DNA of 54,865 bases, the filler included, from Jimgerdemannia flammicorona (Eukaryota), in assembly GCA_003990765.1 (NCBI GenBank). It is 3 parts of 3 records of this genome, joined end to end, with 100 filler letters (N's around TTAATTAATTAA, not from the genome) between each part and the next. Parts side by side here need not be neighbours in the genome. Positions count along the whole stretch, not along the records: positions 36,645 to 54,865 come from RBNJ01002259.1; 2 more parts are not named here. One strand, written 5' to 3'. Below are positions 1 through 54,865 of this stretch, one piece after another. The notes beneath the pieces were generated by a model. The model was not told the origin of the DNA. It saw only the letters and a list, made by a program, of their open reading frames with translations, and searched no databases. Within the stretch, counting starts at the first letter, position 1; the number at the start of each line of letters is the position of its first letter. The position numbers were made by a program, and so were the translations under genes.

Positions 1-40
<40 letters not shown>

Positions 41-99
41 GTCCCTTGGACTCCATCTTTATTACCAGTCTATGAATAAGTATATAATATCCTCACCCA

Positions 100-3000: not shown

Positions 3001-3716
3001 ATCACCACTTCCCCCAAAACACCCCTGTCCCAAAAGGCTCCAGTGATCTGACCACGGACACCATTCTACCTCTAGCACCTTCCAAACATTGCGGCCCCAA
3101 CAGTTGGCCATCAGAATCCAGTCAATTCTTGTTTCCAGACCTCCAGCCCAATGCATATATACCCTCCTGTCCCCCCAGTACTCCCTACCAGCATCCACCA
3201 GTGCTCCTAGCCTTTCGACCTCCTCCCACATTGCCAGCCCCCCACTCCTGCTCTCAGCATCTCATCCTCCATCAGTTCTATCCAGCTGTACATCTCGAAC
3301 CATATTGAAATCTCCTCCAAGCATATCCAATCCAGCTTCAGCAAGGATCCCACTCTCCAGGAGCCCTTTCACCCAATCCACATACTACCCCCGCACTGCA
3401 AGGCAGTAACAGGAACCAACTGTGACTGGCTCCCAACTTGCACAAATCCACTCACCCCAGACCAGTCTCTCCCCCCAGCTCCTCACATCCCTTATCTCCC
3501 CTCTGCCTTTCTGAACCAGAATCCTGACTTTGTTGTTCCAAATCGCCATGCTACTCCATTCCTTAGTCCATTCCATCCTATCAGAATCATCCTTGCACCT
3601 GACATCCTGCAAGAGTTGGCCTCCAATCCCTTTAACCAAATAAAAATGTTCCTGTATCTAACTGTGCCCCTAAGCCCATTCACATTCAAAGAAAAAATAT
3701 TGGTTGTACTGTTCAT
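100..3716 (-). pseudogene. LINE ORF2 (APE endonuclease + reverse transcriptase + C-terminal Cys/His motif), disrupted by stops and frameshifts
   Basis: APE motifs NIFSLNVNGL, RIDWIL, WSDH; RT motifs IFLDQEKAYDWV, GVPQGDSLSPILY, FADD; C-terminal CEEC...EHWLGEC. Split over several ORF-track fragments. Confidence 0.9.
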
Positions 3717-3746
3717 AATGAAATACAGTTTGTTCTCAATCAATCC

Positions 3747-5767: not shown

Positions 5768-5856
5768 TGGTCGCTATGATACTAGTAGCTTTTCTCCAGA
5801 AACTGTGTTGAAAGTGTTGCCAAAAGCTTGTGTAACCTGAATGTTACTGAAGAAAG

Positions 5857-6618
5857 ATGTTCGCTTAATCAGGATCTTTGGCTGAGCAGTTGGCAAGCAG
5901 TAAGAATTGGTGAGAACTGAGATTGGGCAGAAGTCTGGACATAGAGTGCTGAGGTATGGAGGTGGCTTTCTCCCAAGTACTGGATAGTATGGTGGCAGAT
6001 TCTATGGAGGAATGTCATGTTAAATTTCTATGCTGAGCATCTGATGGATGGTGGCCTACTGGAATGCAAAGCATGCTACAATGTTGGATTTGTGCAGATG
6101 TCAGAATATTGGCTGGGAGAGTGTGAGGTTCTGGGGGACTTTTGGATAGCAGTAGGAGACTGGCTAGGGGTAAAGAGGAGACCAGAGGAGGAGAGAGATC
6201 ACTGGAAAGATTTGAGAACTAGGTTGGTAGATAGAGTGGGTAATGAATGGCTCACTGTAGGGTGGGTTTTAGCTGTATAGATAGGGCTAGCTGGACATTG
6301 GCTCTTTATTTTTAAGGAGGAGCAACAGCTGGGTCTGTAGGAGAGGTTGTTAAGATGAGAGGGATTGGTGGGAGATACATATACTGATAGGGTGGTGAAT
6401 TGGATGAGGTCCCCAGGGTGGGTGTCACCACCATCTGGTGGAAGTAATCTGTAGACAGAGTAGTGGGCAGATGGAGGTGATTAATGGCCTAGTGGTCTTT
6501 AATTAAGAGGGAGTGGGGGAGTGAGGGCCCCCTAGAGGAATCAGATAGGGGTGGGCTTAGTATATTATATGTATATGGGATAGATGGCTGTATTAATAAA
6601 GGAAGAAGTCTAAGTGAC

Positions 6619-18191: not shown

Positions 18192-18222
<31 letters not shown>

Positions 18223-18322
18223 NNNNNNNNNNNNNNNNNNNNNNNNNNNNNNNNNNNNNNNNNNNNTTAATTAATTAANNNNNNNNNNNNNNNNNNNNNN
18301 NNNNNNNNNNNNNNNNNNNNNN
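18223..18322. other. Assembly gap (100 nt) with artificial TTAATTAATTAA linker
   Basis: N44-TTAATTAATTAA-N44, preceded by a T-run at 18192-18222 that is probably another LINE tail. Confidence 0.97.
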
Positions 18323-31934: not shown

Positions 31935-32345
31935 TGATAAGCCAAATCCTTTGGATCCTTGGATGGTAGATAGTAGTTCAGGGACTTCCTTAACTGTCAG
32001 AGTTGACTCGATTTTCTCAAATAGGATCTGGGTGATGCAGAAACCAATGGGGATCTTGAAGAGTGTTCAACTATGGTTTCAGATGAGGACAATAATTTCA
32101 CCTGTATAATCTTCATTAATGACTCCTCCTTCTACTGAGAGTCCTTTCAATACTAGGCTGCTGCAACAGTATATTCTTCTAACATATCCTTCAGTGATTT
32201 AGATGCTGATCTCTATATAGACTTGCTTGACTTCTTGGTTGGAAACTGTAGCTTCTTTGGCTATATATAGGTCATATCCAGCTGCCTTTTGACTTCCTTT
32301 GGTTGGGGCCTTAGCAGTTTGTCTTAACTTGATAAAGTCCAGTGT
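31935..32345 (-). pseudogene. dut: Trimeric-type dUTPase domain inside gag-pol
   Basis: All five motifs recognisable: AAGYDL; RI..(R)SSL.LKG; GGVINEDYTGEI; (R)ITQI; TIQGSKGFGLS. Also present in copies A, B and (partly) E. Confidence 0.92.
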
Positions 32346-34355
32346 TTTGGTAGTCAGATTGTTGAGATGGTGCAGAGTAGTAACAGTTGCTCATATTGCT
32401 GTTTGGGGTTTTTGGTTGAGGTAGGCACTGACCATGTGTCCTGTCTTTTGGTAATAGAAGTATACTCCACTTCTTTGAAGTTCATTCCTTTCTTCTTCAG
32501 TGAGTTTCTTAAAGGTACTTGGCTAGGTGGGTTTATGATTTCTGGGTGTTCATGAGGTGGATGTTGAGGGAGCTCGAGATACTTCATGCTTGGGTTCTTC
32601 TTTCTTGGCCCAAGTCTTTTCCTTATTGTTGAATTGTCTATGAGGCAGAATTGGTCCAGCTGTTAAAATATGCTTGACCATGGTCTTGATTCTTACCAGG
32701 CACTATTTGTTGGTAGTTACAACCAACTGGGCAGCCTTGTTCTCAGATTTTTCTAGTAAGCCATTCAGATAGTACATCAAATAGATGGTCTGCTCTTATA
32801 CCATTTCATGCTTTGTCATTAGCAATATATCCTAGGCCAACAGTGTTCAGAAGTGACTCAAGTTTTGTATAGAAAGTTTCGAATTCTTTCTTGTCATATT
32901 TATCAAATTTGAGGTTGTAGAGTTTTACTTGAGATTCAACAATCATGGTTTTGCTATAGTATTGGGCAATTATGAGTTATTTGAGTCCAGGGGCTACAGG
33001 ATGGGCTCTATATCCTGGGGTATTGTTTGCTGCATTCTGGGCAATTACTGCAGGTCAGGTGTCCTATGTGAGGGGTTTTTCAGAAAGGGTTTGCCACCAT
33101 TCTTCAGCAGATTCTTAGAAGAATGTAACAACTCAGCAGATATAGGCTGTAGTGGTAGCAAAGAGTTGTTCCAGAGTGTGGTCTTGGTTATTTGTTAGAA
33201 GGTGGTCAGCAACCCACTCATTGGTCCATTGATTGGCTTCAAAGTTAGTGTCAACTACACTAATGAAGCTTTGGACTTCTTGTGTAGTACCATTAAAGAT
33301 AGGTAGGCTCAGATTTTTGATAGGTTGGGTCTGTTCCACTAAGGTAGTAATGATTGCTGCCATTATGGCTACCTGGGCTGTGAGGTCTAGAATCTGTTGG
33401 TTTGCCATGTTATTTGCTAGAGGTAGCTGAACTACTGGTAATAGTGTTACTAGTACTATTTGAGATATTGGTGCAGAGTGTGATGGAGTTCTTTGGGTCT
33501 GTGTAAGTTGCTAGAGTAGTAGTTATGGGTCTGGAGTAAGGGCTTGATAAATAGCTATTTATTGCTGTGTTGGTATATTCTGTCCTGATGGAGATATATC
33601 TTCTTCGATAGTGTATCCGAGATCAAATTCACTGAGATACTCCTCCTTCTCTTCAGTTTGGTCCCCATGTAATTGGGTTTGCTCAGCATTAAAGTAGACA
33701 GAATTAGTTGTATATCTGATTTTAGATGGACTTAATTCAAAGCCAAGTTCTGGTTCGATATTGGTTTCTGGTTCAGATAGGGCTGTAGCTGGGCCTGCTT
33801 CTAGTTCAGAGTCAGGTTGTTGATAAAGGGTTTCTCTTACTTCTTCCTTAAGAATATGGTGGGCCTTGCTATTCTGGAATCAGTAGTATAATGTAGTCTT
33901 GGTCCTGGTATGGTGAAAGTTGGTAGAGTTGAGCCATTTGGCTACAGAGGCTTGGGCTTCATGAGGAACTAAGGCTAGAAAGACTGCTGCTAGTTGTCCT
34001 AGGTCACTTGGATTTGTGGAGCTGACAAAACTCTTGTTGAGAAGAGTAAAGAAGGCTTCAATAAGACCTTCTTCATATTGACTTGCTGGGTGTAGAGCAA
34101 GGAGTTTGGTGTATAGGATTTCACCTATTTGCTGATTTAACTGGAGTATTTCTTTCTTCAAATGAAGTTTGTCCTACTTATTATAGGTGTGGAGATCAAA
34201 TTGTCCTTGTATGTTAGGTTCAATTCTCTCCAGATTGTCAGATAGTTCAGAATAAATTCCAGTTCAGAGGTTGGGCTTTATACCAACTTATAGGAATTCT
34301 TAAAAGAGTTTATAGCAGAGTGAGGAAGCATCTTGAAGCAGAATTGAATTGTAAA

Positions 34356-36544: not shown

Positions 36545-36644
36545 NNNNNNNNNNNNNNNNNNNNNNNNNNNNNNNNNNNNNNNNNNNNTTAATTAATTAA
36601 NNNNNNNNNNNNNNNNNNNNNNNNNNNNNNNNNNNNNNNNNNNN
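36545..36644. other. Assembly gap (100 nt) with TTAATTAATTAA linker
   Basis: N44-linker-N44, preceded by a T-run at 36522-36544. Confidence 0.97.
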
Positions 36645-37008
36645 GGATGGGCCGGGCCGGTGGGAGGGGGGATTGTTGTTTTGGGTAATTGCGTGCGTGG
36701 TGTTGGATGCAATGTAGCCTGTCTGGGGCTTGGGGTGTTCATGGGATCTTTTTCGTTTGACACCTGCCGTCAAAGCCACATGTTCTGGAGGATGACGTAA
36801 GGAGGCGAGGGTGCAAATTATAATGGGTCGTGACAAAGACGCATGGGCAACCACACGTGATCAAGTGATGAAGGATGACGTGACGTGATTATTTATCTGT
36901 CGAGAATGTCCCCCAAACCCCAAACCCACCCTCCTCCCTCCCTTCCTCCCTCCCTTCCTCCCTCCCTCCCTCCCACTCTTTGACCTCCTCTGAGCCCCCA
37001 AAATCACA

Positions 37009-37481
37009 ATGGTAGGAAAGGGCGCCCAGAAATGCAGCAAGTGCCACCAACCACGCAAGGGCCACATCTGTCCTCTCGCCAACCAGTTCCCCCCCGGCAT
37101 GGCATCCAGCTCAGCCTCCCTTTCGGACTTCGTCGGCGGCCCTGGCGAACCCGTCGACATGACCAGCATGGAGACTGTGAACGCCGTCGCGGAGATGTTG
37201 GTTGCAACCACTAACGTCGCGAGTAACACTGGCCTCGCCGGGCCAAAACCACCGCGACGTCGCAAGTACAACACCGGTAGCAAGGCAAACCGCAACCAGA
37301 ACCTCGTCACCGCCCTAACAACAGGCGCGAATGATGATCTCGTGGGTGTCGGCGTCATCGCCAACGGAAACACTCTCGGTTCCTCCGCCGCAACCACGAC
37401 AAATATGCTGCTCGCAACTCAGAATCACCAGCAGACTGCCCAGTCAATGCACCAGCAGCAGCAAAACCAGCACCTTCAGGT

Positions 37482-37544
<63 letters not shown>

Positions 37545-37559
37545 GCAACAGCTCCAGCA

Positions 37560-37594
<35 letters not shown>

Positions 37595-39068
37595 TGGCGG
37601 CGGAGTTACTCGGGCAAAGTTTTATGCAAAATGGCGGTATGGATAACGGTCTCGGCGGGAATATGACAATAGGAGTTGCTGGTGATGATGGGATGAGTGA
37701 GGAGGATATGGAGGAGGACGATCGCGGTATGGATATGAACGGGAACGGTGACATGAGCGGAGGCGACGGCGTGGGGTTGCAGGAAGAGGTGTTAGATAAT
37801 GACGGTGGCATCCTCGAAGAAGATGGAAATTATGCGCATTTCAGTAAGTATAATAAACTTTCGATTGTTACTCCTCTGGTTATTGGTGGAGCGATTTTAT
37901 ATTTTATTTTATTTTTTTAAACAAAAAAACAAAAACAAAAAACAAAAAACAAAAAACAAAAACAAAAACAAAAACAACCCCCCCCCCCCCCGAGCTGATC
38001 CCGGCTACCTGATGTTGAGTAAAGAAGGAAACCTTGACGAGCTTTGAGCAGTTGATACAGACGTCGGGAAATTCCTTTCGTGGGGCCAGTTGTTCTTACC
38101 TGTCAGCCTGGAAAAAGAGATGTGATGACCACAAAGAGCAAAGAGGAGCGAGCGAGCAAGGAGGAGGATTGACGACACCAACCACCCCGACCCTATGCAC
38201 TCATGACACATATAGGCTGGAACTATTGCAGGATGCAATCGTAAATGGGCTCCACATTTGAGGAAAAGATAAACTGTCTTTCCGTGGCTTCTTGGCACAA
38301 TGGCTTCGAGGTGCACCTATATATATTTAGCATGATGGCATATCCGCTGACTAAATACCGTCTCTTTCCATTTTTTATTTTATTTATTTTATTTTATTGT
38401 GGAACAATATCCACTCCTACCGTCATTGTCAGGCGGCCGAAAACGAAAGAGAATCCTTACATACGTGACGTCGAACGCGAAACGGCGGCAAAAATATTTT
38501 GACATGTCAAAATCATTATTGCAAAAGGTTGGTGCGTCAAGATTATCTAACTGCGCCCCATATCCTGGGCGCCGATCATGTGCGCTCAGGATCGTTAGAG
38601 CATAGCTATATTCGGTTATTCTCACGTGTGCGATCCCTGACACGTTTCCTTTTTCCCACGGTCCCGCCCCGCATCGCCAACTATGTCCACCACCTCGTGC
38701 CGGAACCTCAGGCGGAGGACATTGCGACCACAACAGGCGCCCTCGTGCTCCTCTACCTGGCGCGGCCCGAGACGGACCCACAGATGGTGCAGACGAACGG
38801 GGTCAAGCACTTCGCCACGCCCGTGCTGCAGCGTCACCACGCCCAGTTCCAGATCGCCGATCAAGCCGCCAATGCGCTCATCAATACGCACAAGGAGGAG
38901 CTCGGCCGCGAGCAGGTCACGTCACAGCTCGAGGAGACGAAGCGCGAACTGGAAAGGTGTCGCGAGCGTGTCCGCACGCTCGAAAGGGAGGCGACAATAC
39001 TACGCGGCATGGGCCAGATGCCGGTGATTGGACCGCCAGGAGGTGGGGGTGGAGTGGGAGGACCGTAA
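37009..39068 (+). CDS. Divergent SRF/Mcm1-type MADS-box protein with N-terminal CxxC...HxC motif and polyQ tract (~430 aa)
   Basis: Predicted exons 37009-37843, (possible 24-nt exon 37995-38018), 38433-38527 and 38712-39068 with GT..AG introns in matching phase. Spliced text GRKRKRILTYVTSNAKRRQKYFDMSKSLLQKAEDIATTTGALVLLYLARPE...VKHFATPVLQ follows the SRF MADS pattern (KAYELSxLTGxxVLL...FAT). Confidence 0.75.
37483..37593 (+). repeat. CAG microsatellite encoding polyglutamine
   Basis: About 20 pure CAG units, a short interruption, then about 10 more, in frame in exon 1. Confidence 0.97.
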
Positions 39069-40205
39069 GATGGTAGGGAGGACGGGGAGGGGAGCCGGTC
39101 CAGGCTGCGATTGCTGTCATTAATATTCCCTTTGGGCGATATCTTTGATAAAGGGTACCGCAGCAGCAGGGACCGTGTTTTTATTGGTGCGAGTCGGCGA
39201 TGTGATAACTCGGATGCAGCAAGGCAGGGACAAAAACGGTATGGGGCATGAGCGCTCGTGGACAATCATTTTCGATGTACGTGCGCGGCCTTAGATCGAT
39301 ACTGTGGCGAAAAGCGAAAAACGCAATTGATCTTTCTTCTCGATCATCCACAACGAAGTTTTTATGAAGGTGGTCTTGAAATCAACGTTGGGATTCCCCG
39401 AAAGATTTCTTTTGTACATACATGTCATTCATATCATATACCGCTTTTTTTTTTTTTTTTTTTCTCTCTCCATTCAATATTCCCCTTCTTTAGTCTGCTT
39501 GTTCGTGTCAGATCTGTGTTGATTGCTGTGAGCCACACGTGTTCTTTCCTTACTTCTACGAATTTTGGTCAATTTACCGCGTTCACGTTTGAAATACAAT
39601 GTACGGGCGATATCGTTCACAATTTGGATGAAAGTACGTCGTTATGAAAATTCATCGATACGATCGAGTTCAAAACCCACATCACAGGTATTAACTATAC
39701 TGTTATCTTGGCAGGATTTTGACGGCTCGTGGTACCACAATCAAGGGATCTATGACCATGCGCTGGGTGATGAAATCGGGCATGTAAGGAGCGAGGGGAA
39801 TCGCGGAGGAAACGTGGATGCTGTCAACACGAGCTCATTAGGAGAGAGATGTATTAGCATACTTTTTTGACTCATCTTTCAGTCCTCGAGGTTTTCGACT
39901 ACACGCTATGTATCTTCAGCATCCAATATACCAAAAATGGCTCCACGCGCCAAGCTAACAATCCCCTTTCCGCTCACCTTTTGACAAACCAAATGGACCT
40001 CCGATCCTGGCTGGTTTATAAAAACTCGTGTTTATTTTACAGTGACTAGGCCCATGCACAAATCCACAATAGTTTACTATGACACATCAAAACCGAGATT
40101 TCCTTGTACCACAGAGCCAATCCTCTCCGACGTTCTCAGTCTTGCGCCACCCCCTCCCCTACCTCCTACCCCCTTCCCATTTTCGCACTCCGCACTCCGC
40201 CCTCC

Positions 40206-41010
40206 TTACGTCAATCTTAGCCTGAACCCGTACGACTCGGCAGTCTGGTGCTGGTCAAAGATGGTCCCCTGAAACGTCTGGTCCTCCTCGTCCAGCCCTT
40301 CAAGGGCATGTGACGCCTGCGGCGCAGAGGGGCTGACGTACGTTCGTTTCCTATGCAATTGCGATTGGGAAGACGTATAATCATGAGATGGGAATGGAGA
40401 ATGTCCATGTGCATATTAGGATAATATGTGAATAGAGCACAATTTGAGAATCCTTACTTCTCGCCAGATCCTTTCGACGGCCATGTCGGAAACATGGACG
40501 GATCCTTTGGAGGCGGGCTCTCGCTAAAAATTACAAGGAGGAGGGCAATTAACTCAATGCATCGTTAGCATACGCCTGCAAAAAATGTTGAGTAAATTCA
40601 ACAATAAACCGACCAAACCAATTACTCACATAAAATATGGATGCTTGAGCGCCTCCTCTGCAGATATGCGCCGGGCCGGGTCGTATGTCAGCAGCCGCGA
40701 GAGCAGGTCTAGCCCGCTTTCGGTGAGGTACGGGAAACGGCTACGGAGGTTGTTGTACCTGAATCGATGGGATTGAAGAAGATGTTCACAGTGAGGTGAG
40801 ATGTGGTATTAGCAACGGGAACAAAAGCGAGAAAAGGGATAGACGGAACGATGGGAAAGACAAAGCCAACCCAAAAGCTTACGGCTGGCTCGAAAAGGTC
40901 AGGTTTGCAGTATGAGGGAGCTTTGAGAAGCCAGGCCAGATTTTCTCGTTGGGCATGCCCAATAGTTTGAATATCTGTCCAGCAGAAGAGAGTACCAAGG
41001 ATATATGAGC

Positions 41011-41044
<34 letters not shown>

Positions 41045-42327
41045 CTACTCTCAACGACTCCAGGCGCTCCTTTTTAGTCGAAACTCGAGACTCACCTTGT
41101 CCAATTGATCGAGTTCGCTTCGCCCCGGAAGCAGCGGCTCCTTGTTGACGAGTTCGCCAAAGATGCACCCAATGGACCACATGTCCACGGCGGTGGAGTA
41201 TTCCTTGGCCCCGAATAGGAGTTCGGGTGCCCTGTGGAAGTATCGAAAAGGAGAGATGGGAGATTTGAAAACGACAGACGGAAATCATCTTGTCACATAT
41301 AGTGACTGGCTTCTCGTGCTAGAATGCCCGCACATTCACCCTCTCGATACCCAAAGGAAACCAATTCCCAATGTACCTGTACCACAGGGTGACGACCAGC
41401 TGAGTCATGGACCCCAGCGGGCTGCCGTACTTCCTGGCCAGGCCAAAGTCGGCGACCTTAATCTCGCCGCGGTTGTTGAGCAGCAGGTTGGAGGTCTTGA
41501 GATCGCGGTGGATCATCCAGTTGTCGTGCAGCAGGGCCACGGCGGAAAGCAGCTGAAGCATAATGGTCTTGACCTCGGACTGGAGGAAGGGCGTACGCAT
41601 GCCCTCCATGAGGGATTTGAGGTCATGCTCGATGAAGTCCATAACGATAAAGATCCTGAAGGGTTGGTTAGGCGATAAGGATTAGGAATTGTGAAAGGGT
41701 ACGATCGCGGGTCATCCGGAAGGCAAAAATGGAAGGAGGTTGAAGAGATAGTACGTACTGATCGAGCTTGTCGCCCACTACGATTTCACGCACATTGACA
41801 ATATTGGGATGCTTGGCCAACATGAGAGTATGCACCTCCCGCAAGCTCGTGATGGGGAACCCGTTCTTCTCCTTCTCAAGCTTGAGCTTCTTGAGCGCGA
41901 CGATCTCGCCCGTAGCGCGGTCGCGTGCGCGAAATACCACGCCGTATGCGCCTTCCTCAATGCGATTCAACTTCTCGTAGTTATCCACGTGACGGCACCC
42001 AGAGAGAGTGGGTGCTTGGGGCGGAGGGGGGGCACGGAGAATGCGGCGCACGGGCGAGGATGGGACGGGGGTGCCGGTCTCTGAGGGTGGTAGGTGCGAA
42101 GTGGGCGTCGGGGCGTCGGGGGTGTTGGTGTCAGGTACGGGGGAGGACGAGCGAGACAGGACGTTATGAATGGAAGGGGAGGAGTGTGGGTCGGGGTCAG
42201 GGTCGGGGTCGGGGTCGGGGTCGTCTGGGAGAAGCAGCTTTGGTCTCTTTGGAGGGTTTCTAGGTGTGTTTTCATTGTCGCTGTTGTCTGATTCCCACTT
42301 TGACTTCTTCATTGCAGGGATGCACAT
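40206..42327 (-). CDS. CDK11: Cyclin-dependent kinase of the CDK11/PITSLRE (Ppk23-like) family, 7 exons
   Basis: Exons 42327-41759, 41655-41377, 41231-41096, 40974-40883, 40758-40630, 40523-40458 and 40350-40206, all GT..AG and in phase; motifs [50 protein letters not shown]. Confidence 0.95.
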
Positions 42328-42468
42328 TGACTGCTAATGTGGCGGTGTATATATATTCCCCTCCGTGATGACATCATTACATCTCATGAGCCTTTTTCAA
42401 ACCACTGACGTCACGTGGATGATAATCTCTTTTGTGTGGGCTCCCTCTCCTCCACCACGAGACACGCC
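42328..42468. promoter_or_regulatory. Very short shared (bidirectional) promoter between CDK11 and ARG7
   Basis: 141 bp between divergent start codons; contains ATGACATCAT (42368-42377) and overlapping TGACGTCA (42406-42413) and CACGTG (42412-42417). Confidence 0.6.
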
Positions 42469-43916
42469 ATGTTGTCTGCCATTTCAAAACCAATGTCGAC
42501 CGCCGTTCGTATTGGTGCCCAATTCTACTCTACTTCCACAAAGTACGCCCACCTTTCCGCCCGCAAGCAATCCCTTATCCCCACAGCAGGAACATACCCA
42601 TCCGGCTTCCGCGCTACTGGCATCCATTGCGGAGTCAAGAAGAAAGCGGGAGTTAAAGATCTGGCCCTTATTGTCTCCGAATACCCTTGTACTGCCGCTG
42701 CCGTCTTCACCACCAACGTCTTCAAAGCTGCTCCTGTCATTGTATCCCGTGAAATCCTCGACAAGAACCGTGGTCAAGGTATCTACGGCGTTGTCACCAA
42801 TTCCGGGTGTGCCAACGCTGTCACTGGTACCGTGGGCCTCGAAAATGCCCGTCGCATGTCCCAAACCGTCGATACCCTCACCGGCCAGCCCAATTCCTCT
42901 GTGGTCATGTCCACAGGTGTGATAGGCCAGCACTTGCCCATCGCCAAGATCGAGAAGGGCGTCCAAGACGCAGCTGCCAGCCTCGCGTCTGACCACGATG
43001 CCTGGTCCCGCGCCGCAGAGGCCTTCATGACCACCGATACGTTTCCCAAACTGTGTTCCGCAACCTTCACTCTTCCCTCCGGCACGTCCTTCCGCATGGC
43101 CGGTATTACTAAGGGCGCTGGCATGATCCATCCCAACATGGCTACGCTCCTAGGCTTCATCGTCACGGACGCACGGATCGATGCCACATTGTTGAACAAG
43201 GCGCTCAAGCATGCGGTCGATCGGAGCTTCAACGCGATCAGCGTGGACGGGGACATGAGCACGAATGACACAATCGCCGTGTTGGCGAATGGCGCGGCTG
43301 TGACGGATGGGAAAGGAATCGTGAATGAGCAGAGTGAGGATTTCAAGAGTTTTCGCGATCGGTTGGCAGATTTTGCAGCGAATTTAGCGCAATTGGTGGT
43401 GAGAGATGGCGAGGGCGCGACGAAGTTTGTCACCGTAAATGTGCAAGGAGCCAACACTTTTGAAGAAGCGAAACAAGTCGCTTCTACCATCGCAACTTCC
43501 TCACTTGTCAAGACGGCCCTGTACGGTCAAGACGCCAACTGGGGTCGGGTATGTGATATTACTCTATGCACATTTCGCATTTTCATTCTCCCCGGCATGG
43601 ATCCTCAGCTTCTCTACCTCAAACCTTACTTTTTCCATTCTCACAGATCCTCTGTGCTGTCGGCTACTCGGGCGTCTCCAGCATCGATCCCACGCGCGTG
43701 AGCGTCTCTTTTGTCCCGACCGATGGCTCTACCTCGCTACCATTGCTGGTCAAAGGGGAGCCGGAGAACGTCGACGAGGCGCGGGCAAGCGAAATCTTGA
43801 AGATGGAGGATCTCGAAATCCGCGTGGAGTTAGGGCTAGGCAAGGAGGAGGCTAAAATGTGGACGTGTGATTTGAGTCACGAATATATTTCCATCAACGC
43901 AGATTACAGGTCGTAA
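42469..43916 (+). CDS. ARG7: Mitochondrial ornithine acetyltransferase (ArgJ family), 449 aa
   Basis: Exons 42469-43548 and 43647-43916; motifs [35 protein letters not shown] (autocleavage), [23 protein letters not shown]-terminus resembles a mitochondrial presequence. Confidence 0.96.
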
Positions 43917-44828
43917 GTTATCACATCGGATTGTAGAATGAGATCGGATCTTTGAGATTGTAAAGTACGGATTCAAGATGCCATTAAACATGGACAACAA
44001 AAAACAAACAAACCTTCTTCATTTTTTGATTTTTGAGAAAAGAACCGAATTTTAGTATGCGAAACGCTTGACCTAGCAAACAGTATGAACAAAACCAAGT
44101 ATCCATAAATTTCACGGAGTAGATCGGATAGAAATTGTATAAATCTCCTCTATTTGGGCAGACCTTGCAGATGCAACCATAAGTTGGACTGCTTGCTAGC
44201 GGTGGGAGATATTTTCAGACGCGAAAAAAATTGAAAGGTGATTCAATGTTGACGTGCCAGGAGCACTTTGCTGAGAAGGACCTATTCAAGTCAGACAAGA
44301 GATATAGAATGTTTGAAGTGCGGATCAGCAAAGGTAAGGAAATCGACATTTCCTAACCGTGGAGCATCCCCTTCCTTGGGACCCAACCCTGGCTCGCGTG
44401 GACGTACTTCCTTCGTGCACATGCCGGGCCCATCCTTGACGCAGCTGTTAGTGCTGCTTTCTCCACTGCCCCGATCACCACAGACGTACCATTTAGACTG
44501 TGCAAATAGAACGTTCACAGAATGAAAATAAAATAAAAATGTAATCACTTTGTGGTTGTCCCAAATCCGTAAACAGCTTCTCCAGTTTTGCGAGCTTTTT
44601 TTATTTTCAACTTCCACAAGTAGATGTTGGGAAAGATGAAATAGAACTTTCATCCATATGAGATGATGCAATCGTATTGGAGAAGTACAAAATATGTTGC
44701 CTTCCGCAGGCGTTTGTTGGCAATGCAAGTTAAACGAAAAACACAGTGCATGAGTTGTGGTCAACAGAGTACAGAGACTCTAGAGGCCTTCCTGATTGTC
44801 AACTATGGCAATGGCTTGGGCTTCCATC

Positions 44829-45114
44829 TACAAGAAATGGTTCAACTATCCTGAATGCCACTCGGAGGTGTCCGACCACCTGCACAAAACGGCGGAGATG
44901 GTCTTCGCTTATAAAATGTGCAAAAAGATCTTCCGCAAAGCTCTATTGCCACGCAGCGTTCCAATCGAAGTATACATCCATCTCACCTCTTACGTATCCA
45001 TTTCCGTCGGGTTACTAAGGAAGACGAATACTGTCCGCATTGCGACAACAAGTATACGTCGTAGACGCCAAGGTACCCGTGCTCGGCATCCGAGGATCCA
45101 CGTGTGGATTCAAG
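44829..45114 (+). pseudogene. Probable pseudogene of a small fungal CHY zinc-finger protein
   Basis: Pieces across frames: YKKWFNYPECHSEVSDHLHKTAEMVFAYKMCKKIFRK / EDEYCPHCDNK / YVVDAKVPVLGI / EDPRVDS; several expected Cys read as Tyr and frameshifts are needed. Confidence 0.55.
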
Positions 45115-45744
45115 GTAATATTCGACAGCCTTTCGGGATGGAACATGGCCAGGAAAATCGTCTATGTAGAAATAGCCGCCAAAATATTCATTCAAGTGGT
45201 GTGCAGGTGTCCTGGGCTAGGTTTCATGGCAGCGAGTTGATCAGAGTGGGCAAACGTTGTTGTCAATATCAATTATTCGCGCTCTCCGATCCTTGATCTA
45301 TCGTGACCTCCATCTTTGGCATCGATGGTAACCAGACATATATATGGACGCCAAGTCGGCTGAGTCCGGTGATTTCACTTCTGAAAGAGGTATATACGAG
45401 TTTCTTGCCCATACTCATTATCATGGTGACATTATCATGGTGAAATATATTAATAATTCGAAATTACCCTACAAAATAATAGGCACAAGAGCTTGCTGTT
45501 GTAATTCTGACAAAATACTTTTGTGTGGAAATGCAAAAACTTCATTACGAGGGCGTGGGACGGTTTTGTTTATATCTCAACGAAATGACGTCCAATATTG
45601 ATTTTTGTAGACTTTTTAGAAAGCCCTAAATCGTGGCTTTCCAACAGGCCTAAGTACGTCAAAATCAGACATCATTTAGCCGAGATATAATGTAATTAAG
45701 GGTATTATGAAACATAATATGGGCCGGTCGATTTTGACAATACC

Positions 45745-48700
45745 CATAATATCTCCTCACCCAGCACTGGCTGCCCAAGCTCCCCAGTCCTATAGCTGGA
45801 CTCGGGTGCCACTCCTCCAGATGCCACTCAATGTCTCTTGCATTCTCTCCTCCCTCCTCCTCACTTCAAAGATTACTCCACCTGGCACTCAATTGCCCCA
45901 GGATCTCCAGTACCCTAGTAACCATCACACCCCTCTCATCCAACACCTCCTCCCACTGGTGCCTTGCCCTTCTAGTATGAAGAAGTCTTAACAAGAACTT
46001 CATAGACTGCTCACCTTCCTCCAACCCCTGCCACCACAATCTTGCAGCCAATGCCTGTACCTCAATGGCCTCCTCTTTCCTCAATATGTCTTATAACTCA
46101 GCAATCTCCAGCTTTGCCTGCTGTACTCTCCAATCCACTACCCCCTCCTCTTCCAGTAACCCTGTCCATTCCAACAGCAGTCTTTCCAACCTCTGAGATA
46201 TCCATCTGATATACCTCCATCTCTTGGCACCCTGTCTCTTACTGGCCTCTCCCTAGAAGTACTGGGCCTCAGACTTCAACTTCTTCTACTGATCCTTTAT
46301 CTCAAGACCTGCCCTCCTCTAGGCACTAATGTAGGATATAATATGACTCTCCCAGGAATTCCACTGAGTGGTATCATCTAATAGAGAGGTATTAAGGTAC
46401 TAATGTCCAGACCCCTCACCACTATCTCCAAACCTCTCTACTACCTAGATACTCTAGTGGTCAGATCAGGGACACTATTCCACCTCTATAGACTTCCAGA
46501 CTGTAGTGCCCCAGTACTCTGCAGATAGAACTCAATCTATCCTAGACCCCAGACCTTGAGCCCAATGTGTGTACAGTCTGTAGGCACCATCCTGTAGCCT
46601 TACTGTGTCCATCAGAGATCCAAGTCACTCAATCTTCTCCCAGACCTCTATACTCCCACTTCTCCCAGTCATTTCTCTTTCCCTGTCAGTCTTGTCCAGC
46701 CAACTCTCTCTGACTATATTAAAGTTGCCACTTAGACAATCTACTCCTGTCTCCACCAGAGCACTGAAGTTCTATAATTTCTGAATTCAAGTCACTCTAA
46801 CATCCCTTTTAGCTGGGTAATAGCAAGACCCAACCACTAAAGCACCCCATCCAGGCCTCCTCTATGCACTCCAAACTAGTCTACTACCCTAATGTCCAAT
46901 ATCTACAATATCTCCTTTTCTCTTCCTAACTAACATCTCCACTTTTTCCCACCAAACCACCTCTCCCCCCCACTCTTTTGTCTAATCCAAACCATCAGCC
47001 TTGACCTTATACCTGACATCCTAAAGTAGAAATAGATCAGCCTCCTGCTTCCTAAGTCAGTAAAAAATCCTACATCATCTCTCTGCTTCTCAAAGCCCAT
47101 TGATATTCAAAGATAAAATTTTGGTTATACTGTTTATAATGAAAGATATATATAGGTAATATACAGACTCTACTCTATAACTCTATACTCACTTTCTTGC
47201 TAGCCAGATCCAGAATCCTCTCTACTGCCACCTCTGCATCTAATTCCTATTATTCATCTAGAGCTGCCAATATCTCTGCATAGTTCTCTCTATCCACTAT
47301 CTCTATTACCACACAATGCTCCTCACACACCACCTACCATTTTGCTTGACTATTTCTAGGCTTTCACAAATATACTACTCTTTCATTTGCAATATTCAGG
47401 AGAGTTACTTCTCTGGCCTTGGTCACCTCATACTCCTTCTCCTCTAATAGTACTGCCATTATCTCATCTTGTAGTTTCCTGACCACCTTCTCTCCCCACA
47501 ATACATGGTCCCAGAAGTCCTCACTGATCACTTGAAAGTCAATCTCTCCCAGTTTCTCTACTGCCACATTCTGCAGTACCTTCTATAGCCATTTCTCCCC
47601 CCCAACTACCTTCTCTACCTGTGCCAACATGGGCCCTCCACCTGTCCCCTTCTCAGTCCTGACTGACTCATCCCACCTATTCTTAGATATATCCTACAGC
47701 TCCTCCTCCCCAACCTCCAGAACTCTATACTGAACAGGTCTCATCTCTCTCATCTCCTCATCTATTACTCCCTCAGCTGGCCCAGATATCTGGACCTTCT
47801 CCATTCCTCCCCCCTATCAGCCATCATCTACCCAGATACTAGCTCTGGCCTCAGTCTCTACAGTTACCTCAGCTCTCTTTGGACCTCTCTCCAGACTTGC
47901 CAGTAAGTCTTTCTGCAGCCACCTCCCTTGTGCCCTCTCCCAGACAGCCCAATATAGCTATACCTTCTTGTCATTAACAATCTCTACAATAATCTCCATC
48001 TCATATTCCCACCAAGTCTTCTTATGTCTTGCCACCACCTCCTCTAGATTCTCTAATACTTCCAGCAGATCCTCCTCTTCTTCAGCCATACTCTTTACCC
48101 TGAACACCTTGCACTCCACCAGACCTCACTTTAAAACCACTGACCAATTCCTCCCCTTACCAATAGCCTCCATACTTACCAGTTGAACTCTCACATCCAC
48201 ATCATCTATCCTAAGCTCTATCCCCTCTCAGACTTAAAATCCAACATCCACAATCTCTCTATACCCTCTGATGATATTGCTAATCAACCTTCTGGCATCC
48301 TCCTTCTTGACTGTCAGCACAATCACCAGATAGACCACTTGCAGATCCCAATATATACATCTTACCATTGGTATTATCACCCCACCCACCACTAGTTCCT
48401 TCTCTACTGCCTTTAACATTAGATCTTCATCCTCAAATCTAACCTCCACAGCCTCCAACTTCTTCAGAAACTTCACTGATGCTATCTCCTTAACCTCCTT
48501 AGTCAACAGCCTCAGTACTATCTTTACCATTACTACTAGGCCCTGAAAGCACATTGTGACAGCAAATTCAGACCTTGACTTCTTAAGTAATAGTACTGTC
48601 ACCAGCCCTGTCACACCATCTGCTAAATCGCTAGGCCTCATATCAATCCCACTACCTGGTCTACCATCAGCAGTCCTATCTTAATTTTTTTCCATCTCCA

Positions 48701-49140
48701 CCATTACACCACTATCAGCAGTTATCTGCTCAGCTACCACTCTCTCTACCTCACTATACTGACCTCTTGGAGAGGCTCCCCCCCCTCCCCAGTTATTGCA
48801 GACCTCTTCCCCAGCTTTCCCAGCTCCAATTAGCTATTCAGCTCAGTCACTTGCTTCCCTATCCTGATCTTATCCACAAAGGTCATCCTTCCGACTCTCT
48901 GTCAATCTGCTCCACCTCTTCCACTACTACCAGCCCCTTGACCCTATACAGAAGCACTCAGCAACCCCAATCCAGCACCTCCACCCCTCTCTATATGTTG
49001 CCAATTGAAGGCACTAGGGCCCCCCTATCCAGTATACTTACCAGTTTATTCATTGCTCACCATATAGTTATTACCTTTTTATGGAAAACATTGTCAGAAG
49101 TGTTGTAAAGCTTGTGTAATGTGAATAGTAGCCGAGAAAG
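45745..49140 (-). mobile_element. LINE copy 3 (5' end, ORF1, endonuclease; RT and 3' end missing), diverged subfamily
   Basis: Fragments 48234-48641, 47364-47567 and 45866-46084 are homologous to copy 1 ORF1/ORF2; shared 5'-terminal sequence. Left boundary approximate. Confidence 0.85.
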
Positions 49141-51670
49141 GTCATGCTTGAGCTTCTTTATCATCAGCACATGCTACAATAATCTGTTTTATAATAGAGT
49201 TAGTAACCAAGGTGAGAGTTTGGATAACTTCTTCAATTAGTAGTCTGGAAATTGCATTGGTAACAATATTCTCCTTGCTAGGGCAATACTGGATTTCATA
49301 GTCAAAGTTGGTGAGGACTTTCATCCATCTGGCTTGCTTCTGAGAAAGAGTAGCCTGGGTCTTAATATTGACTAATGATTTGTAATCAGTCAAAACAGTG
49401 AAGTGTGCTTCTTCTAGATATGGTCACCATTTGATCAGTATATCTACAATGGCTAGCATTTCCTTCTCATAAGTTACATAGTTAATTTTAGCATCATTGA
49501 ACTTGTGAGAATGATAGGCCACAGTGTGTCTTTCTTGCATAAGTACTGCTTCAAGAGCTAGGTCAGAGGCATCAGTAGTAACTTTGTATAGTAGAGCAGG
49601 GTTTGTCACTTGAAGTACTGGAGTGGTTATCAAGATATCTTTTAGTACTTGGAAGGCTATGTCTTGTTCAGGTCCCCAATTTACAAGATTGTTGAAATCT
49701 CTTTCTTACTTTGCAGTCCAAGACTGTTCTCCTTTTTTGTTATGCTTAGTCAATTGAATAAGGACAGTAGTGATCTTGGCAAAGTTTGCAATAAATTGTC
49801 AATAGTAGTTTGCTAATCTCAGAAATGACTAGAGGTCTTTCAGCTTCTTGGATCTGGGCCAATCTTTAATTGTAGTAATTTTGCTGAGATCTACTTTGAT
49901 TCTATTTGGTGTGATAATATATCTAAGGAATTAAATTTCATTCAGAAGAAATTTGCATTTGCTAAGTTTTACAAAGAGTCAGTTCTCTCAGAGTTTCAGT
50001 AGTACTAATTCAAGATGTTTGAGATGTTCTTCCAGGGTTTTGCTGAAGACTAAGATGTAGTCAATATAGACAATAATGAATTTGTCCAGGTATAGATACA
50101 GGATAGTATTCATCAGTATCTAGAAGATTACAAGAGCATTAGTTAAGCTAAAGAGCATAACCAGAAACTCAAAATGTCCATAGTGGATTCTGAAAGCTGT
50201 CTTGTAGATTTTTTCTTCTTTTATGGCAATTTGCTAATAGTTATTTCATAGGTCAAAAGAGCTTATAAACTGTAGATTGGTAAGCCTATTGAATATTTTA
50301 TCAATTTGGAGTAGTGGGTAATAGTTCTTGATGGTCTGTTCATTGAGGTCTTGGTAATCAATATACATTTGCAGATCTTCTTCTTTCTTGACAACAAAGA
50401 GGACTGGTGCACCATAGGGTAATATACTGGGTCTAATGAATCCTTGTTCCAGAAGTTTATTGATTTCCTTCTTAAGTACATCAATCTCTCTCAGAAATAT
50501 GTGATAGATTGATTTGAAGGCAGGCTTAGCATCTGGGATAGTCTTGATGGTATAGTCTACTACTTATTTAGATGGTAGGTCTTTTGGAAGTTTCTTTAGA
50601 AATATATCTCAGAATTTCTAGAGTAGGGATCTAACATAGTTGTCAACTTTGGAAAAGTCTTCTTTGAGGTTTTCAGATTCTCCTTTGGATAGGCAGATAG
50701 AGATAGCAAAGAGAGGGCATTTCTTGGCTAGTTTCTTGAGTTGTAGCTTATTGATATAGGTGATCTTTGGTCTAGGATCACTCAGATTGAGTGAGTCTTT
50801 TTTGCCTTACAGTTTGAAGTTGTGGTATTCTTTCTTGATAGTCAGAGAATGGTTTACCCAATTGATCATAGGGTTCTCTTATTTCAACCATAAGGTCTCA
50901 AGGATAATTTCATTATCAGAAAGTAGTACAATCTAGAGAGTAATATATACTTGGTAGTCACCAATTCAGAAGGATAGGTTGTAGACTTCCTTACTAATAA
51001 TATGTGAGGTTTCATTAACTATGACAACTGCTTGAGTTTGTTGTACCAGAGATATCAGGACCTTGAGTCTATTAGCTGTTTCTTTATTAATGAAGTTGTC
51101 TGAGATACTACTGTCTATCATAATCTTGACAGGTGTTCAGTTGATAAAAGCTTGAAGTATAAGTAGTTTGTCTGATCTAATGATAGTGATTTGGGTAGTA
51201 AGAGCTTTCCTTCTGTTGATTCTTCTTTAAGCTAGTTTATTGATATAAGAGAAGTAATTATCAATCATTCAAGAAGAGTACATTCTAATACCATAGAGGC
51301 ATTGACCACTTGGTATATATCTATCTTTGATTTTCTTATAGAATTATTCTTTCTTACTTACTGTAGGTTGGGCTAGAGCCTTGTTTGATGAACCAAGTCC
51401 TTTGGATCCTTGGATAGTAGACAGTAGTTCAGAGACTTCTTTGACTATTAGGGTTGATTTGATTTTCTCAAATAGAATCTATATGATACAGAAGCTAATA
51501 GAGATCTTGAATAGTATCTAACTATAGTTTTAGATGAGAATAATAATTTTGCCTATATAGTCTTCATTGATGATTCCTCTTTCTACTAAGAGTTCTTTTA
51601 GTACTAGACTACTGTGGCAGCATATTCTTTCAATATATCCTTCAGGGATTTGGATGCTGATTCCTGTATA
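49141..51670 (-). mobile_element. Gypsy copy E, internal fragment (part of dUTPase, PR, RT, RNase H)
   Basis: Colinear with copy C ~29690-32220; RNase H TDASDLAL and EKEMLAIV. Confidence 0.9.
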
Positions 51671-52246
51671 GAGCCCAACCTCTGAACTGGAATTTATCCT
51701 GAACTATCTGACAATCTGGAGAGAATTGAACCTGACATATAAGGACAATTTGACCTCTATACCTGCAACAAGTGGGACAAACTTCATTCAAAAAAAGAAG
51801 TACTCTGATTAAATCAATAAATAAGTGAAACCTTATTCACCAAACTCCTTGCCCTATACCCAGTAAGTCAAGATGAAGAAGGTCTTATTGAAGCCTTCTT
51901 TACTCTTCTCAATAAGAGTTTTGTCAGCTCCACAAATCTGAGCGACCTAGGACAACCAGCAGCAGTCTTTTTAGCCTTAGTCCCTCATAAAGCCCAAGCC
52001 TCTGTAGCCAAGTAGCTCAACTCTACCAACTTTCACTGTACCAGGACCAAGACTGTATTATACTACTGATTCCAGAACAGCAAGGCCTGCCATATTCTTA
52101 AAAAAGAAGTAAAAGAAACTCTTCATCAACTATCTGACCCTGAACCAGAAGCAGGTCCAGCTATAGCCTTACCTGAATCTGAAACCAATACCAAACCAGA
52201 ACTTGACTTTGAATTAAGTCCATCTGAAATCAGATATACAACTGAT
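51671..52246 (+). mobile_element. Opposite-orientation fragment of the Gypsy gag N-terminal extension
   Basis: Matches copy B ~23520-24090 and the reverse complement of copy C ~33705-34280. Confidence 0.88.
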
Positions 52247-52268
52247 TAGTGCTCCGAATGAATGGAGT

Positions 52269-52480
52269 TGATCCGGATGAGATTCGATTCAGATTCGTCA
52301 TGTGATGGATTCGAATCAACTCGGATTGGTCTCGTGATCTGATCCGGATTGATCTGGATTGATCCGGATTGATCCATCCAGATTGATCCATCCGGATTGA
52401 TCCATCCGGATGATCCATCTGGATGATCCATCCGGATGATCCATCCAGATTGACCCATCTGGATTGATCCATTTGGATTG
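52269..52480. repeat. Subterminal array of GATCC(ATCC)GGAT-type motifs
   Basis: About ten 9-13-bp units, several containing the palindrome ATCCGGAT; degenerate counterpart at ~21205-21330. Confidence 0.85.
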
Positions 52481-52682
52481 AAATCTTTGGTGACGTCACT
52501 CTTTCTTTTGTTCATTTCGCTCTTGTTTTTTTTTTCTGCCGCACTTTGGTGACATCACCCTTTCCTTTGTTCCCTCTCTTTCTTTGTTCTTTTTCTTTGT
52601 TCTTTCCTACTGCATCACGAGAAAACAAAACAGCAGCCCTAAATTTGTACGTTGGTCCAGTCTACTCATTTTTCACCCTGCA

Positions 52683-54761
52683 ATGATTGTCAAAAGAGGG
52701 AGTATTCGAGGTGGAAACGCACTCTCTGCTGACAATGTTAGATTCTTTCTCATATGGACAGTACACAAGCTGCTCATCGAGAGCCAAAGGGGTGACGGCG
52801 GTGGCGGTGGCGGTGGCGATGGCGATGGCGATGGCGATGGCGGGGATGAGGGAGAATTCCGGCAACAACTCACGGCAGCCCTTTGGACCTCGGAATTCAC
52901 AGAACTCACAGCTATGTATGCGGCAGCCTTTTTGGAGCAGCCGATAGTAGATGTAGGTTGCTCACTCAGCCGCCACTTGTTTACTTGTGTTTATTTATTT
53001 AAACTTCCCCAGCACGACCCAATTCACCTTGTGCTTTTCTCAGGGTCCACAGCTCTACGGCAAGATCTGCCGACTTTATTCGCAACATCTGGTCAAGATG
53101 AAGAAAGGCTGGTGGACGTTGCGGGGCATGCCTTTGGTGGCTGAGCTGTTGAGTCAATGCATTGCGTGGCGGAGGTCTCAAAAGGAACAGAAGCAAGCCT
53201 TTGTGAGCAATTCTTGTGCAACTCGTGCAACTCGTCGGTGTGCAACTCGTCAGCATGCAACTCATTGGCATGCAGCTCACTCACTCGTACTCTTTTTCTG
53301 AAATACCCATCTCCGTGTTTTATTTAATTTCATTTTTACATGGTCTCCCCCTAAAAAACACCCACACCCACACGCAACCCGCACACAACCTGTCCGCACG
53401 CAACCCGCCCGCCCGCATACAACCCGCCCGCATGCCACCCGCAACCTGCCCGCACACAACCTGCCCACACGCAACCCGTCCGCATACTTATCTCGGTCCC
53501 TCAGATCAGGGCTCAGTTCCAGTGGAAAGGAGAGTTCAAAGTTACCCTAGTTCAACCACGTCCGGCGTCTGATCAAATAGAGAAATTCGAGGGCAAGATG
53601 TTCAGCATGAGCAGTACTAGCATCGTCATCAAGGCTTGGGGGTCTACATTCGAATCAGAGCCAATCGTACTCGACCAAGGGGTCCATTGGCCAGCAGGAG
53701 TAACCAACGACGAAGAGAACCATATCTTTATTAACGAATGTGGAGAGGTGGTTGCGATGGTGGTAAGGAACCTCTACGGCGACGAGCTTCGCCACCACAT
53801 CAATGAGATTTGCGAGGATTGCGTCAAATACTGGGTGGCAGGGAAGAGGGGGCGAAAAAAGCAAGGAGGGGGGGTTTGGACGGGAATTGGGTATACTGCA
53901 ACACTGGCGAAGGGTGGGTTCCGAAATCCCCTGCACTCGTCTCCCTTTTTTTTTAACCCCTCCCCAGATAAATCACACTCTTCGCCGACATACTCTTTTT
54001 GATACAATTCCAGGGATGCACAAGATTCTGTACCCCTACCAGAACTTTAGAAGTGCCGTCAAAGAGCAAACTACGCGCGAGCACGACACGGCCTGTGCGG
54101 CAATGGCGGCTATGATTTGGGGTTCTTTGAGCAGATTGGTAGAGCGTACAGCAGGCCAGCTTGGTGGTGACCTCGGCGCAGCTGTACGTACGTTCTTGGC
54201 ACAATTTAGTGTGCCGTATGAGGTGAGGAGCTCCGCTTTTTTGGGGTGCTGCAGCCCGGGGGTTTCTGCAGCCCAGGGGGTTTCTGCAGCCCGGGGGGTT
54301 TCTGCCCCCCGAACGCAAAAAGGACTGACCGGTTGCCATCCGTTTTGGCAGGTTTCCAAGCCGGGGCTCCCGGGGCTGGACCAAGGGCAGGCATCCACCA
54401 GCACAGCCTGGCAGTATGAGGTCCTGGGCCAAGGGTTCACCAACCGTATGCTCGCGTCACATCAGGATATGTCGGGCGCAACCTTTCTCTGCCCACACAC
54501 ACAGACAACAACGTCACCCCGGTAATGTTTTACATCCCAGAAAGGAAGGGCCCAACCTGGGAGGACAGCGGCGGAGTCTGGTATGACCTCACCTATGGTT
54601 TCGGGGTCCCGTTTGCAGCCAACATGGCCATCCTATTCCAACCACACGACCACCACGGCACCGTCGCCTTCGAGGAGAGCTCGGACACAACAGTCATCGC
54701 ACTCACAACGGATGACAGGCTCATCAAGGCCTGGGACCGGCGGGTGGAGCAGTTTTTGTGA
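52683..54761 (+). pseudogene. TET/JBP-like Fe(II)-dependent dioxygenase gene (~474 aa consensus); this copy has a 1-bp deletion at ~54440
   Basis: Predicted exons 52683-52952, 53044-53202, 53505-53834, 53968-54222 and 54352-54761, all phase 0 (donor of intron 3, GTGGCA, is weak). Restoring the third C seen in copy 1 gives PYARVTSGYVGRNLSLPTHTDNNVTPVMFY...SGGVWYDLTYGFGVPFAANMAILFQPHDHHGT. Confidence 0.65.
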
Positions 54762-54854
54762 GGGTTAGGCAATCTTTCGTGAGGGTTAGGCAATCTTTCG
54801 CGAGGGTTAGGCAATCTTTCATGAGGGTTAGGCAATCTTTCGCAAGGGTTAGGC
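54760..54854. repeat. 21-bp tandem repeat (GAGGGTTAGGCAATCTTTCRY), ~4.5 units
   Basis: Directly visible; about 2.5 units in copy 1 (~18888-18941). Confidence 0.9.
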
Positions 54855-54865
54855 AGCCATTTTGT

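Follow-up and report, generated by a model that had tools for sequence, protein, structure and literature searches.

At one end of a 54,865-nucleotide (nt) stretch of Jimgerdemannia flammicorona DNA (GCA_003990765.1; hereafter the window) lies a repeat copy that carries, at 52683–54761 on the plus strand, a gene split by introns and broken by a single missing base. This locus is probably a copy of a dispersed repeat whose gene, interrupted by introns, encodes a small oxygenase of the Fe(II)/2-oxoglutarate type from the TET/JBP-like group. The nearest described relatives of this enzyme are the PE-type proteins of DNA transposons in Agaricales and Pezizomycetes. In its assembled form the gene is a pseudogene, barring an assembly error at the frameshift site, and copies with an intact frame exist elsewhere. 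Because this copy is broken, it is the family, more than the window gene itself, that gives the locus its value.

The window contains three assembled pieces, separated by two spacers (N44-TTAATTAATTAA-N44) at 18223–18322 and 36545–36644. The pieces were joined artificially and neighbourhood across the spacers is therefore meaningless. The copy bearing the gene (copy 2) forms the extreme end of the third piece (record RBNJ01002259.1), and an inverted second copy of the repeat (copy 1) lies near the start of the second piece.

Gene model and the single-base frameshift

The model of the gene consists of five exons on the plus strand with a joined length of 1457 nt, a single base less than a multiple of three. 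All four introns (91, 302, 100 and 129 nt) have GT..AG borders. Exon 2 (53044–53202, donor GTGAGC) has homologue support from the ATG at 53128, where MPLVAELL... corresponds to the start of P0003, a metagenome protein of 374 residues. Exons 3 and 4 were placed by pairwise BLASTP and tblastn. Exon 3 (53505–53913), which encodes a conserved GEVVAMVVRN strand and a GGGVWTGIGYT block, matches residues 91–166 of P0003 (BLASTP, E 2e-13; also tblastn), and INECGEVVAMVVRNLYGDE, reported for this exon in the earlier note, is present in the translation of the open reading frame (ORF) table. Exon 4 (54014–54222) encodes a helical part that ends in FSVPYE and matches P0003 residues 168–227 (E 1e-08); its phase-1 junction, located in a Gly, is common to the metagenome locus L001. 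The catalytic motifs are encoded by exon 5 (54352–54761), which is broken by a 1-bp deletion and ends with the stop codon at 54759–54761.

With an X placed at the break, residues 124–479 of the read-through product align with residues 7–363 of P0003 at 28% identity (E 2.9e-50). The same product matches P0013 with an E value of 4.5e-38 and is 85% identical to P0001. The tblastn alignment of P0003 is interrupted at the same places (residue 167 and residues 226–238) in the window and in L001, and the exon 2/3 break recurs in L001 as well (...KLKKEF / ...ARHQF), so that three of the four intron positions are matched there. The spliced model is thus supported by its colinearity with P0003 and by the introns of L001, and it lacks homologue support at exon 1. 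P0003 starts (M-P-..-L-L...) at Met 53128, which leaves exon 1 (52683–52952) and the initial 28 codons of exon 2 open yet unsupported. Exon 1 has no homologue cover and is doubtful as coding sequence. It contains a GGCGAT microsatellite at 52797–52842 (20810–20898 in copy 1), which differs by 30 nt between the two copies and would give a Gly/Asp run if translated. The length of 474 residues given earlier for the product does not stand, as the read-through of the present model has 485.

The site of the break was located by alignment of the two copies with MAFFT, which places GGGTTCA-CCAACCG of copy 2 opposite GGGTTTACCCAACTA of copy 1. Copy 2 reads A-CC at 54439–54441 (CC at 54440–54441), where copy 1 reads A-CCC (CCC at 19261–19259 on the minus strand, that is, GGG at 19259–19261 on the plus strand). 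In the ORF table, the frame at 53767–54525 runs into a stop, and the frame at 54420–54761 carries ...PYARVTSGYVGRNLSLPTHTDNN...FQPHDHHGT..., including ...PTHTDNN.... The relative P0001, 84% identical, reads straight through the site (...GQGFTQPYAYVTSGYVG... / ...QYEVLGQGFTQPYAYVTSGYVG...), as an extra C would restore. The indel and its effect, both described in the earlier note, are thereby confirmed: the frame of the relatives is the restored one, P0001 is continuous across the site, and the missing base hides the C-terminal HxD...H part of the product. The positions given for the motif are also correct: the HxD has its His at 54498 and its Asp at 54504, and 50 residues past this Asp the distal His follows at 54654. 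A short intron was considered as a cure for the frame break and was rejected, since paired GT and AG borders near 54440 are separated by about 20 nt and do not keep the phase.

Contigs of four public sequencing runs (X1, X2, X3 and X16) were placed on the region, with the site itself covered in X1 and X3 and left uncovered in X2 and X16. An extra C behind 54439 was present in X1 at a depth of 38.2 of 130.6, from two contigs (one of depth 34.7, with two other differing letters in 108), and in X3 at a depth of 9.68 of 22.9, again from two contigs. Each of the two runs holds contigs of either kind, so both the CC and the CCC form exist. These contigs, which bear the CCC form with an intact frame, answer the concern that no copy might have the HTD frame open. 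The product of copy 2 as assembled ends at about residue 406, ahead of the HxD in the right frame, which makes this copy a pseudogene, a point that the earlier note leaves out.

Relatives of the product and likeness to TET/JBP oxygenases

A phmmer search of 1.84 billion representative proteins with the 113-residue C-terminal frame returned 12 proteins at E ≤ 1e-3, five of which are members of the family: P0001 (4.7e-56), P0002 (1.7e-36), P0003 (1.4e-12), P0004 (2.5e-11) and P0012 (9.6e-4). Among the other matches, P0005 and P0006 are WD40 proteins and P0011 has a fungal fucose-lectin domain (P0007–P0010 lay outside the domain scan). One further relative came from a word index, and two loci, L001 (1–3666) and L002 (1–2870), came from Joint Genome Institute metagenomes; word-index homologue searches for longer proteins, with the 113-residue frame and with exon 3, yielded none. 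The family is thus tiny, and all of the relatives found are metagenome proteins without names. The two loci share 99% identity over 2717 nt, are AT-rich (GC 0.34) and lack nucleotide similarity to the window; both carry a relative of the gene in which the intron places are kept. L001 is open and has HVD at the metal motif; in L002, stop codons are present and a Cys replaces the conserved Gly-Arg, which indicates that metagenome copies decay too.

The C-terminal segment TVIALTTDDRLIKAWD (54666–54746, residues 82–108 of the 113-residue frame) mimics the end of a WD40 repeat and gives misleading HMMER E values (1.4e-14 against PDB 2ymu). The PDB matches of the 113-residue frame were WD40 rows only, and were rejected as an artefact of the C-terminal ...DRLIKAWD, which also accounts for the phmmer matches P0005 and P0006.

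The HxD...H pattern, which lies in a beta-rich C-terminal domain, is conserved in the family. Within H-T-D (54498–54506, plus strand) the His and the Asp, both proposed to bind Fe(II), are kept in 6/6 and 5/6 family sequences, respectively, and the H-G of H-G-T, whose His (54654–54656, plus strand) is the proposed third ligand, is invariant in 6/6. Invariant columns (G, T, V, Y, YG, N and F) surround the two invariant His residues. The Asp is replaced by Asn in P0004 and is present in L001, which is close to P0004 in product. The Arg of DDRL (54717–54719, plus strand), 21 residues past the distal His, is also found in P0001, P0002 and P0003 and is a candidate 2-oxoglutarate-binding residue. 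The N-x5-HxD context, cited in the earlier note as typical of TET/JBP enzymes, does not hold up: the Asn is not kept in the family and is Cys in P0002, P0003, P0013 and P0004.

Comparison of language-model features points toward the TET/JBP families. For the 113-residue piece, the closest clusters are 'hypothetical' proteins of Basidiomycota (0.92–0.95), followed at 0.89 by two clusters, one in which 11% of members bear PF12851 and one, described as 'Tet-like 2OG-Fe(II) oxygenase', in which 72% bear PF20515. The first match of P0003, at 0.96 with 209 of 256 features in common, is a Basidiomycota Atlas cluster with PF20515 (15% of members); there are 12 matches at ≥ 0.9 in the PF12851 set, and the ten best family-bearing matches all belong to one family or clan. 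By the tool's own description, such neighbours are leads.

TET/JBP proteins borne by fungal transposons have been sorted into PU, AG and PE types (Kojima 2025; PMC12730594). In that source, PE-type genes are carried by Zisupton, EnSpm, Plavaka, Helitron and IS3EU elements in Agaricus bisporus, Laccaria bicolor, Gymnopus confluens and Pezizomycetes. The PE type is very divergent (HHpred E 1.4 to CMD1), its AlphaFold DB models resemble CMD1, NgTET and CcTET at e < 1e-5, and HxE is its hallmark (PMC12730594). Among the Table S1 sequences compared, the PE-type proteins show the same order of conserved blocks as the window family along about 280 residues, as judged by eye. The N-terminal strand reads ...VVIRNA... 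or ...GMVVRD... in PE proteins and ...AMVVRNL... (exon 3) in the window family. The 4-mer MVVR of the window occurs only twice in the whole of Table S1, both times in PE entries and at the matching place. A Gly-rich block follows, which in PE proteins precedes ...SAGSRS and in the window family reads ...GIGYTA... (joint pattern G..G(Y/H)(T/S)A). The block ahead of the metal site is RMDG.G in PE proteins and LPGLDQG in the window family (RLDGG in L001 and P0013; LDGG), with [LM]DG.G in common. After the metal motif, H-x-E in the former and H-x-D in the latter, comes a long block, GGHF[YF]...YGI.V..AAN....W.P...HGT against GGVWY...YGFGV.FAAN....F.P...HGT. The C-termini, ...FVTSSRL and ...ALTTDDRL, share ..T..R[LV], and an Arg stands at the place matching 54717 in all ten PE sequences compared. 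The PE type is likewise repeat-borne and hard to reach with Pfam and HHpred models. The stretch from the conserved Arg to the first His is four to five residues longer in the window family than in the PE type, and because the family has HxD instead of the hallmark HxE it is called PE-like here rather than PE type.

The PU type of Pucciniomycetes and the AG type, found in Kyakuja/Zisupton elements of Agaricomycetes and including CcTET, resemble the window family in having HxD...H with similar spacing. They are also repeat-borne, in fungi with repeats methylated or eroded at cytosines, and PF20515 and PF12851, their families, are the language-model neighbours of the window family. However, the blocks of the PU entries compared (GG.MWA.GWRK, F.N..H.D and FTR.G.S.Q) and of the AG entries (NR.TP.HRD) fit the window family worse than do the PE blocks. 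By manual counting, the counterparts of CcTET Gly331 and Asp337 are Val and Tyr in the window family. The His-x-Asp...His triad is also that of NgTet1, CMD1 and human TET2, for which structures have been solved; in NgTet1, about 50 residues separate the triad ligands. Sequence similarity of the window family to these three enzymes was not detectable in PDB sequence searches.

A dispersed repeat eroded at cytosines

The repeat is at least 2.6 kb long, with copies at 52248–54865 (plus strand, running off the end of the window) and 21348–18887 (minus strand). A blastn search of the window with 52001–54865 aligned 52417–54813 with 21275–18887 on the minus strand at 79.5% identity over 2443 columns, with an additional weak match of 52247–52411 to 21348–21212. 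Tandem arrays stand on either side of the gene. Upstream, 10/14-nt units of ATCCGGATTGATCC (8.8 units) and a 59-nt unit (1.9 units) form a 5′ subterminal array at 52322–52596, which is common to copy 1; directly past the stop codon, a 21-nt unit, TTTCGTGAGGGTTAGGCAATC, is repeated 4.9 times at 54754–54855 and 2.5 times in copy 1 (18890–18941).

The 5′ boundary of copy 2 is sharp (52247/52248) and truncates a Ty3/gypsy fragment at 49145–52247 (minus strand; RNase H at 49145–49705). Three other copies of this gypsy element are uninterrupted at the equivalent of the insertion point (16064, 33702 and 24091), and copy 1 adjoins a different part of a gypsy long terminal repeat, at 21395. The sharp 5′ end is therefore found in two unrelated gypsy contexts. 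In addition, 794 contigs of varied identity from the soil run X1 match the region. On these grounds, the two contexts and the many varied contigs, the repeat is a dispersed element that has probably transposed. The neighbouring gypsy element was also considered as carrier of the gene and rejected, since the three other gypsy copies continue across the insertion point without a break. Carriage by KDZ or Plavaka, the transposons named in the earlier note, finds no support in the window: no transposase was found among 133 ORFs, the 3′ part of both repeat copies falls beyond the assembled pieces, and the visible 5′ terminus, AGTGCTCCG..., fits none of the transposon termini quoted in PMC12730594.

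The two copies differ markedly in their cytosines. Relative to copy 2, copy 1 has 439 substitutions, of which 412 are transitions and 374 are C>T or G>A; the cytosines changed amount to 159/244 at CpG, 138/359 at CpA, 58/360 at CpC and 19/284 at CpT. Copy 1 retains no CpG, compared with 126 in copy 2, whose observed/expected (o/e) ratio is 0.75 (0.77 over 52247–54865). Lesions of copy 1 include ATG to ATA, GT to AT at the intron-2 donor and a 1-bp deletion in exon 3, and its exon-equivalent translation contains 25 stops. Copy 1 is thus dead, destroyed by C-to-T erosion, and the view that repeats of this genome are eroded at cytosines is well founded. In the other repeat-rich stretches of the window, Ty3/gypsy elements included, CpG is strongly depleted (o/e 0.03–0.24). 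The CpG retention of copy 2 in comparison with these repeats is compatible with protection or with youth. The full erosion of copy 1 shows that any such protection is not general.

Alternative readings, possible function and surroundings

A number of results weigh against an intron-containing, repeat-borne TET/JBP-like gene. Searches of Pfam with hmmscan detected neither Tet_JBP (PF12851) nor 2OG-FeII_Oxy_6 (PF20515): six window pieces gave no match to these or to any other oxygenase at E ≤ 10, five relatives gave neither family at E ≤ 1, and P0001–P0004, P0013 and two exon pieces of L001 gave at E ≤ 10 only unrelated rows below threshold. A PDB sequence search with the family profile and with P0003 returned no match at E ≤ 10. 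AlphaFold models of P0003 (mean predicted local distance difference test score, pLDDT, 37.0, from 6 alignment rows) and P0001 (pLDDT 46.9, 8 rows) were too poor for a fold claim, and Foldseek and VIA gave weak cupin- or double-stranded-beta-helix-like matches only on these low-confidence models. The comparison with the PE type was made by eye on the Table S1 sequences of PMC12730594, with no aligner or statistic. In that comparison H-x-E stands in 10/10 PE sequences, as against H-x-D in the window and five relatives, and further Pezizomycetes entries of the source may differ. Arg 54717 has no aligned counterpart in P0013 or P0004. As to splicing, five RNA contigs of the soil metatranscriptome run X16 (88–97% identity) lie over parts of introns 2 and 3, and none of the four introns shows a splice joint in them; as DNA may be present in the library, these contigs neither prove nor exclude splicing. 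As to mobility, no transposase or helicase family was found in 133 ORFs of at least 60 residues (6000–36500 and 44000–52554), which match only RVT_1, RNase H, integrase, SH3_Tf2-1 and dUTPase, all domains of gypsy elements. The TET/JBP-like identity put forward in the earlier note is accordingly backed only indirectly, by the language-model neighbours and the by-eye match to the PE type, and goes without backing from Pfam, PDB and the models, which are of low confidence. The product could instead be a cupin-type or other beta-rich protein unrelated to TET/JBP, such as a hydroxylase acting on small molecules or proteins, or a transposon accessory protein without enzymatic activity, given that HxD...H may be common at the superfamily level or arise by chance. 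This is unlikely, as it leaves aside the ordered likeness of four blocks, metal-ligand blocks included, to the PE type over about 280 residues by eye, and the placing of P0003 first in a PF20515 Atlas cluster at 0.96 with its ten best family-bearing matches in one family or clan. A repeat in a cytosine-eroded genome is moreover the setting of the known fungal TET/JBP genes (PMC12730594).

Two further alternatives concern the assembly and the nature of the repeat. Contigs nearly identical to copy 2 with the extra C (that of depth 34.7 in X1 and two in X3), and the position of copy 2 at a piece end, where repeat copies are readily mixed, would suit an error of assembly or consensus, or several copies collapsed into one, with the gene at 52683–54761 intact in the organism. 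Yet the extra C is missing from the majority of the depth, 92.4 of 130.6 in X1 and 13.2 of 22.9 in X3, and errors are not typical of a run of two versus three bases. There are also many other positions at which copy 2 and nearly all contigs disagree, chiefly through transitions for which the window has A or T, and this indicates a distinct, slightly eroded copy. An error at the frameshift site is thus distinctly unlikely. Very unlikely in our judgement is a repeat that belongs to a segmentally duplicated host gene family lying among retroelements. No transposase, terminal inverted repeat or target-site duplication can be demonstrated, and only one end of the unit is visible, as such a duplication would allow. 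Against this stand the identical 5′ end at two unrelated gypsy positions that other gypsy copies span unbroken, the subterminal tandem repeats on both sides of the gene, the hundreds of diverged contigs in a single soil run and the repeat-targeted erosion of copy 1. A dispersed element carrying a PE-like oxygenase gene is the reading retained here.

If so, intact members of the family would fold as a double-stranded beta-helix and, judging from 2-oxoglutarate oxygenase chemistry and the PE-like similarity, would bind Fe(II) via the residues encoded at 54498 (His), 54504 (Asp) and 54654 (His). Arg 54717 may help to bind 2-oxoglutarate or another co-substrate. The substrate would be a modified DNA base, most likely 5-methylcytosine, whose oxidation could lessen the methylation-linked silencing or deamination of the carrier element. 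The window copy is unable to perform such oxidation as assembled. That these genes are anti-silencing cargo, as the earlier note supposed, is a hypothesis already in print: transposon TET/JBP genes are thought to undo silencing methylation, and for the divergent types the source records no assay of a transposon-borne enzyme (PMC12730594).

The phenomenon of transposon-borne fungal TET/JBP genes is already known, and it is the lineage that appears undescribed and missed by standard models. A 2014 study is reportedly among the earlier work on such genes. Tentatively, and at somewhat below an even chance, the family may be a fourth lineage of repeat-borne TET/JBP-like oxygenases in fungi, as yet without a name: a sister to the PE type, with the ancestral HxD kept, known only from soil metagenomes and the DNA analysed here, invisible to Pfam, and with a carrier whose visible end is unlike those of the described superfamilies. 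Were this true, the little-eroded copy 2 would be a test case for the question whether such enzymes shield their own element from cytosine erosion. The locus leaves the known picture unchanged. It illustrates that such genes can hide behind introns and single-base breaks, and it provides a natural contrast within 55 kb, between a copy with CpG almost intact and one in which every CpG is lost.

The remainder of the window is largely retroelement sequence. Nested Ty3/gypsy elements with reverse transcriptase, RNase H, integrase and SH3_Tf2-1 domains occupy 6001–36500 and 44000–52247, and include dUTPase domains at 14336–14596 and 32202–32390, both on the minus strand. The segment at 36645–44000 is an ordinary gene island (CpG o/e 0.97), which contains a Gln-rich ORF with a weak TFIIA match (36994–37920, plus strand), the N-terminus of a protein kinase (41668–42333, minus strand) and ArgJ (42409–43701, plus strand; Pfam E 3.5e-118). 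Runs of about 30 A or T letters occur at piece ends (2–37 and 18192–18222). At 1–6000 and 46001–50000, GC skew is strongly negative (−0.28 to −0.49) at a GC content of about 41–54%, and the former segment includes a weak RVT_1 match at 1909–2838 on the minus strand. These two skewed segments may represent another class of retroelement with a strand-biased composition.

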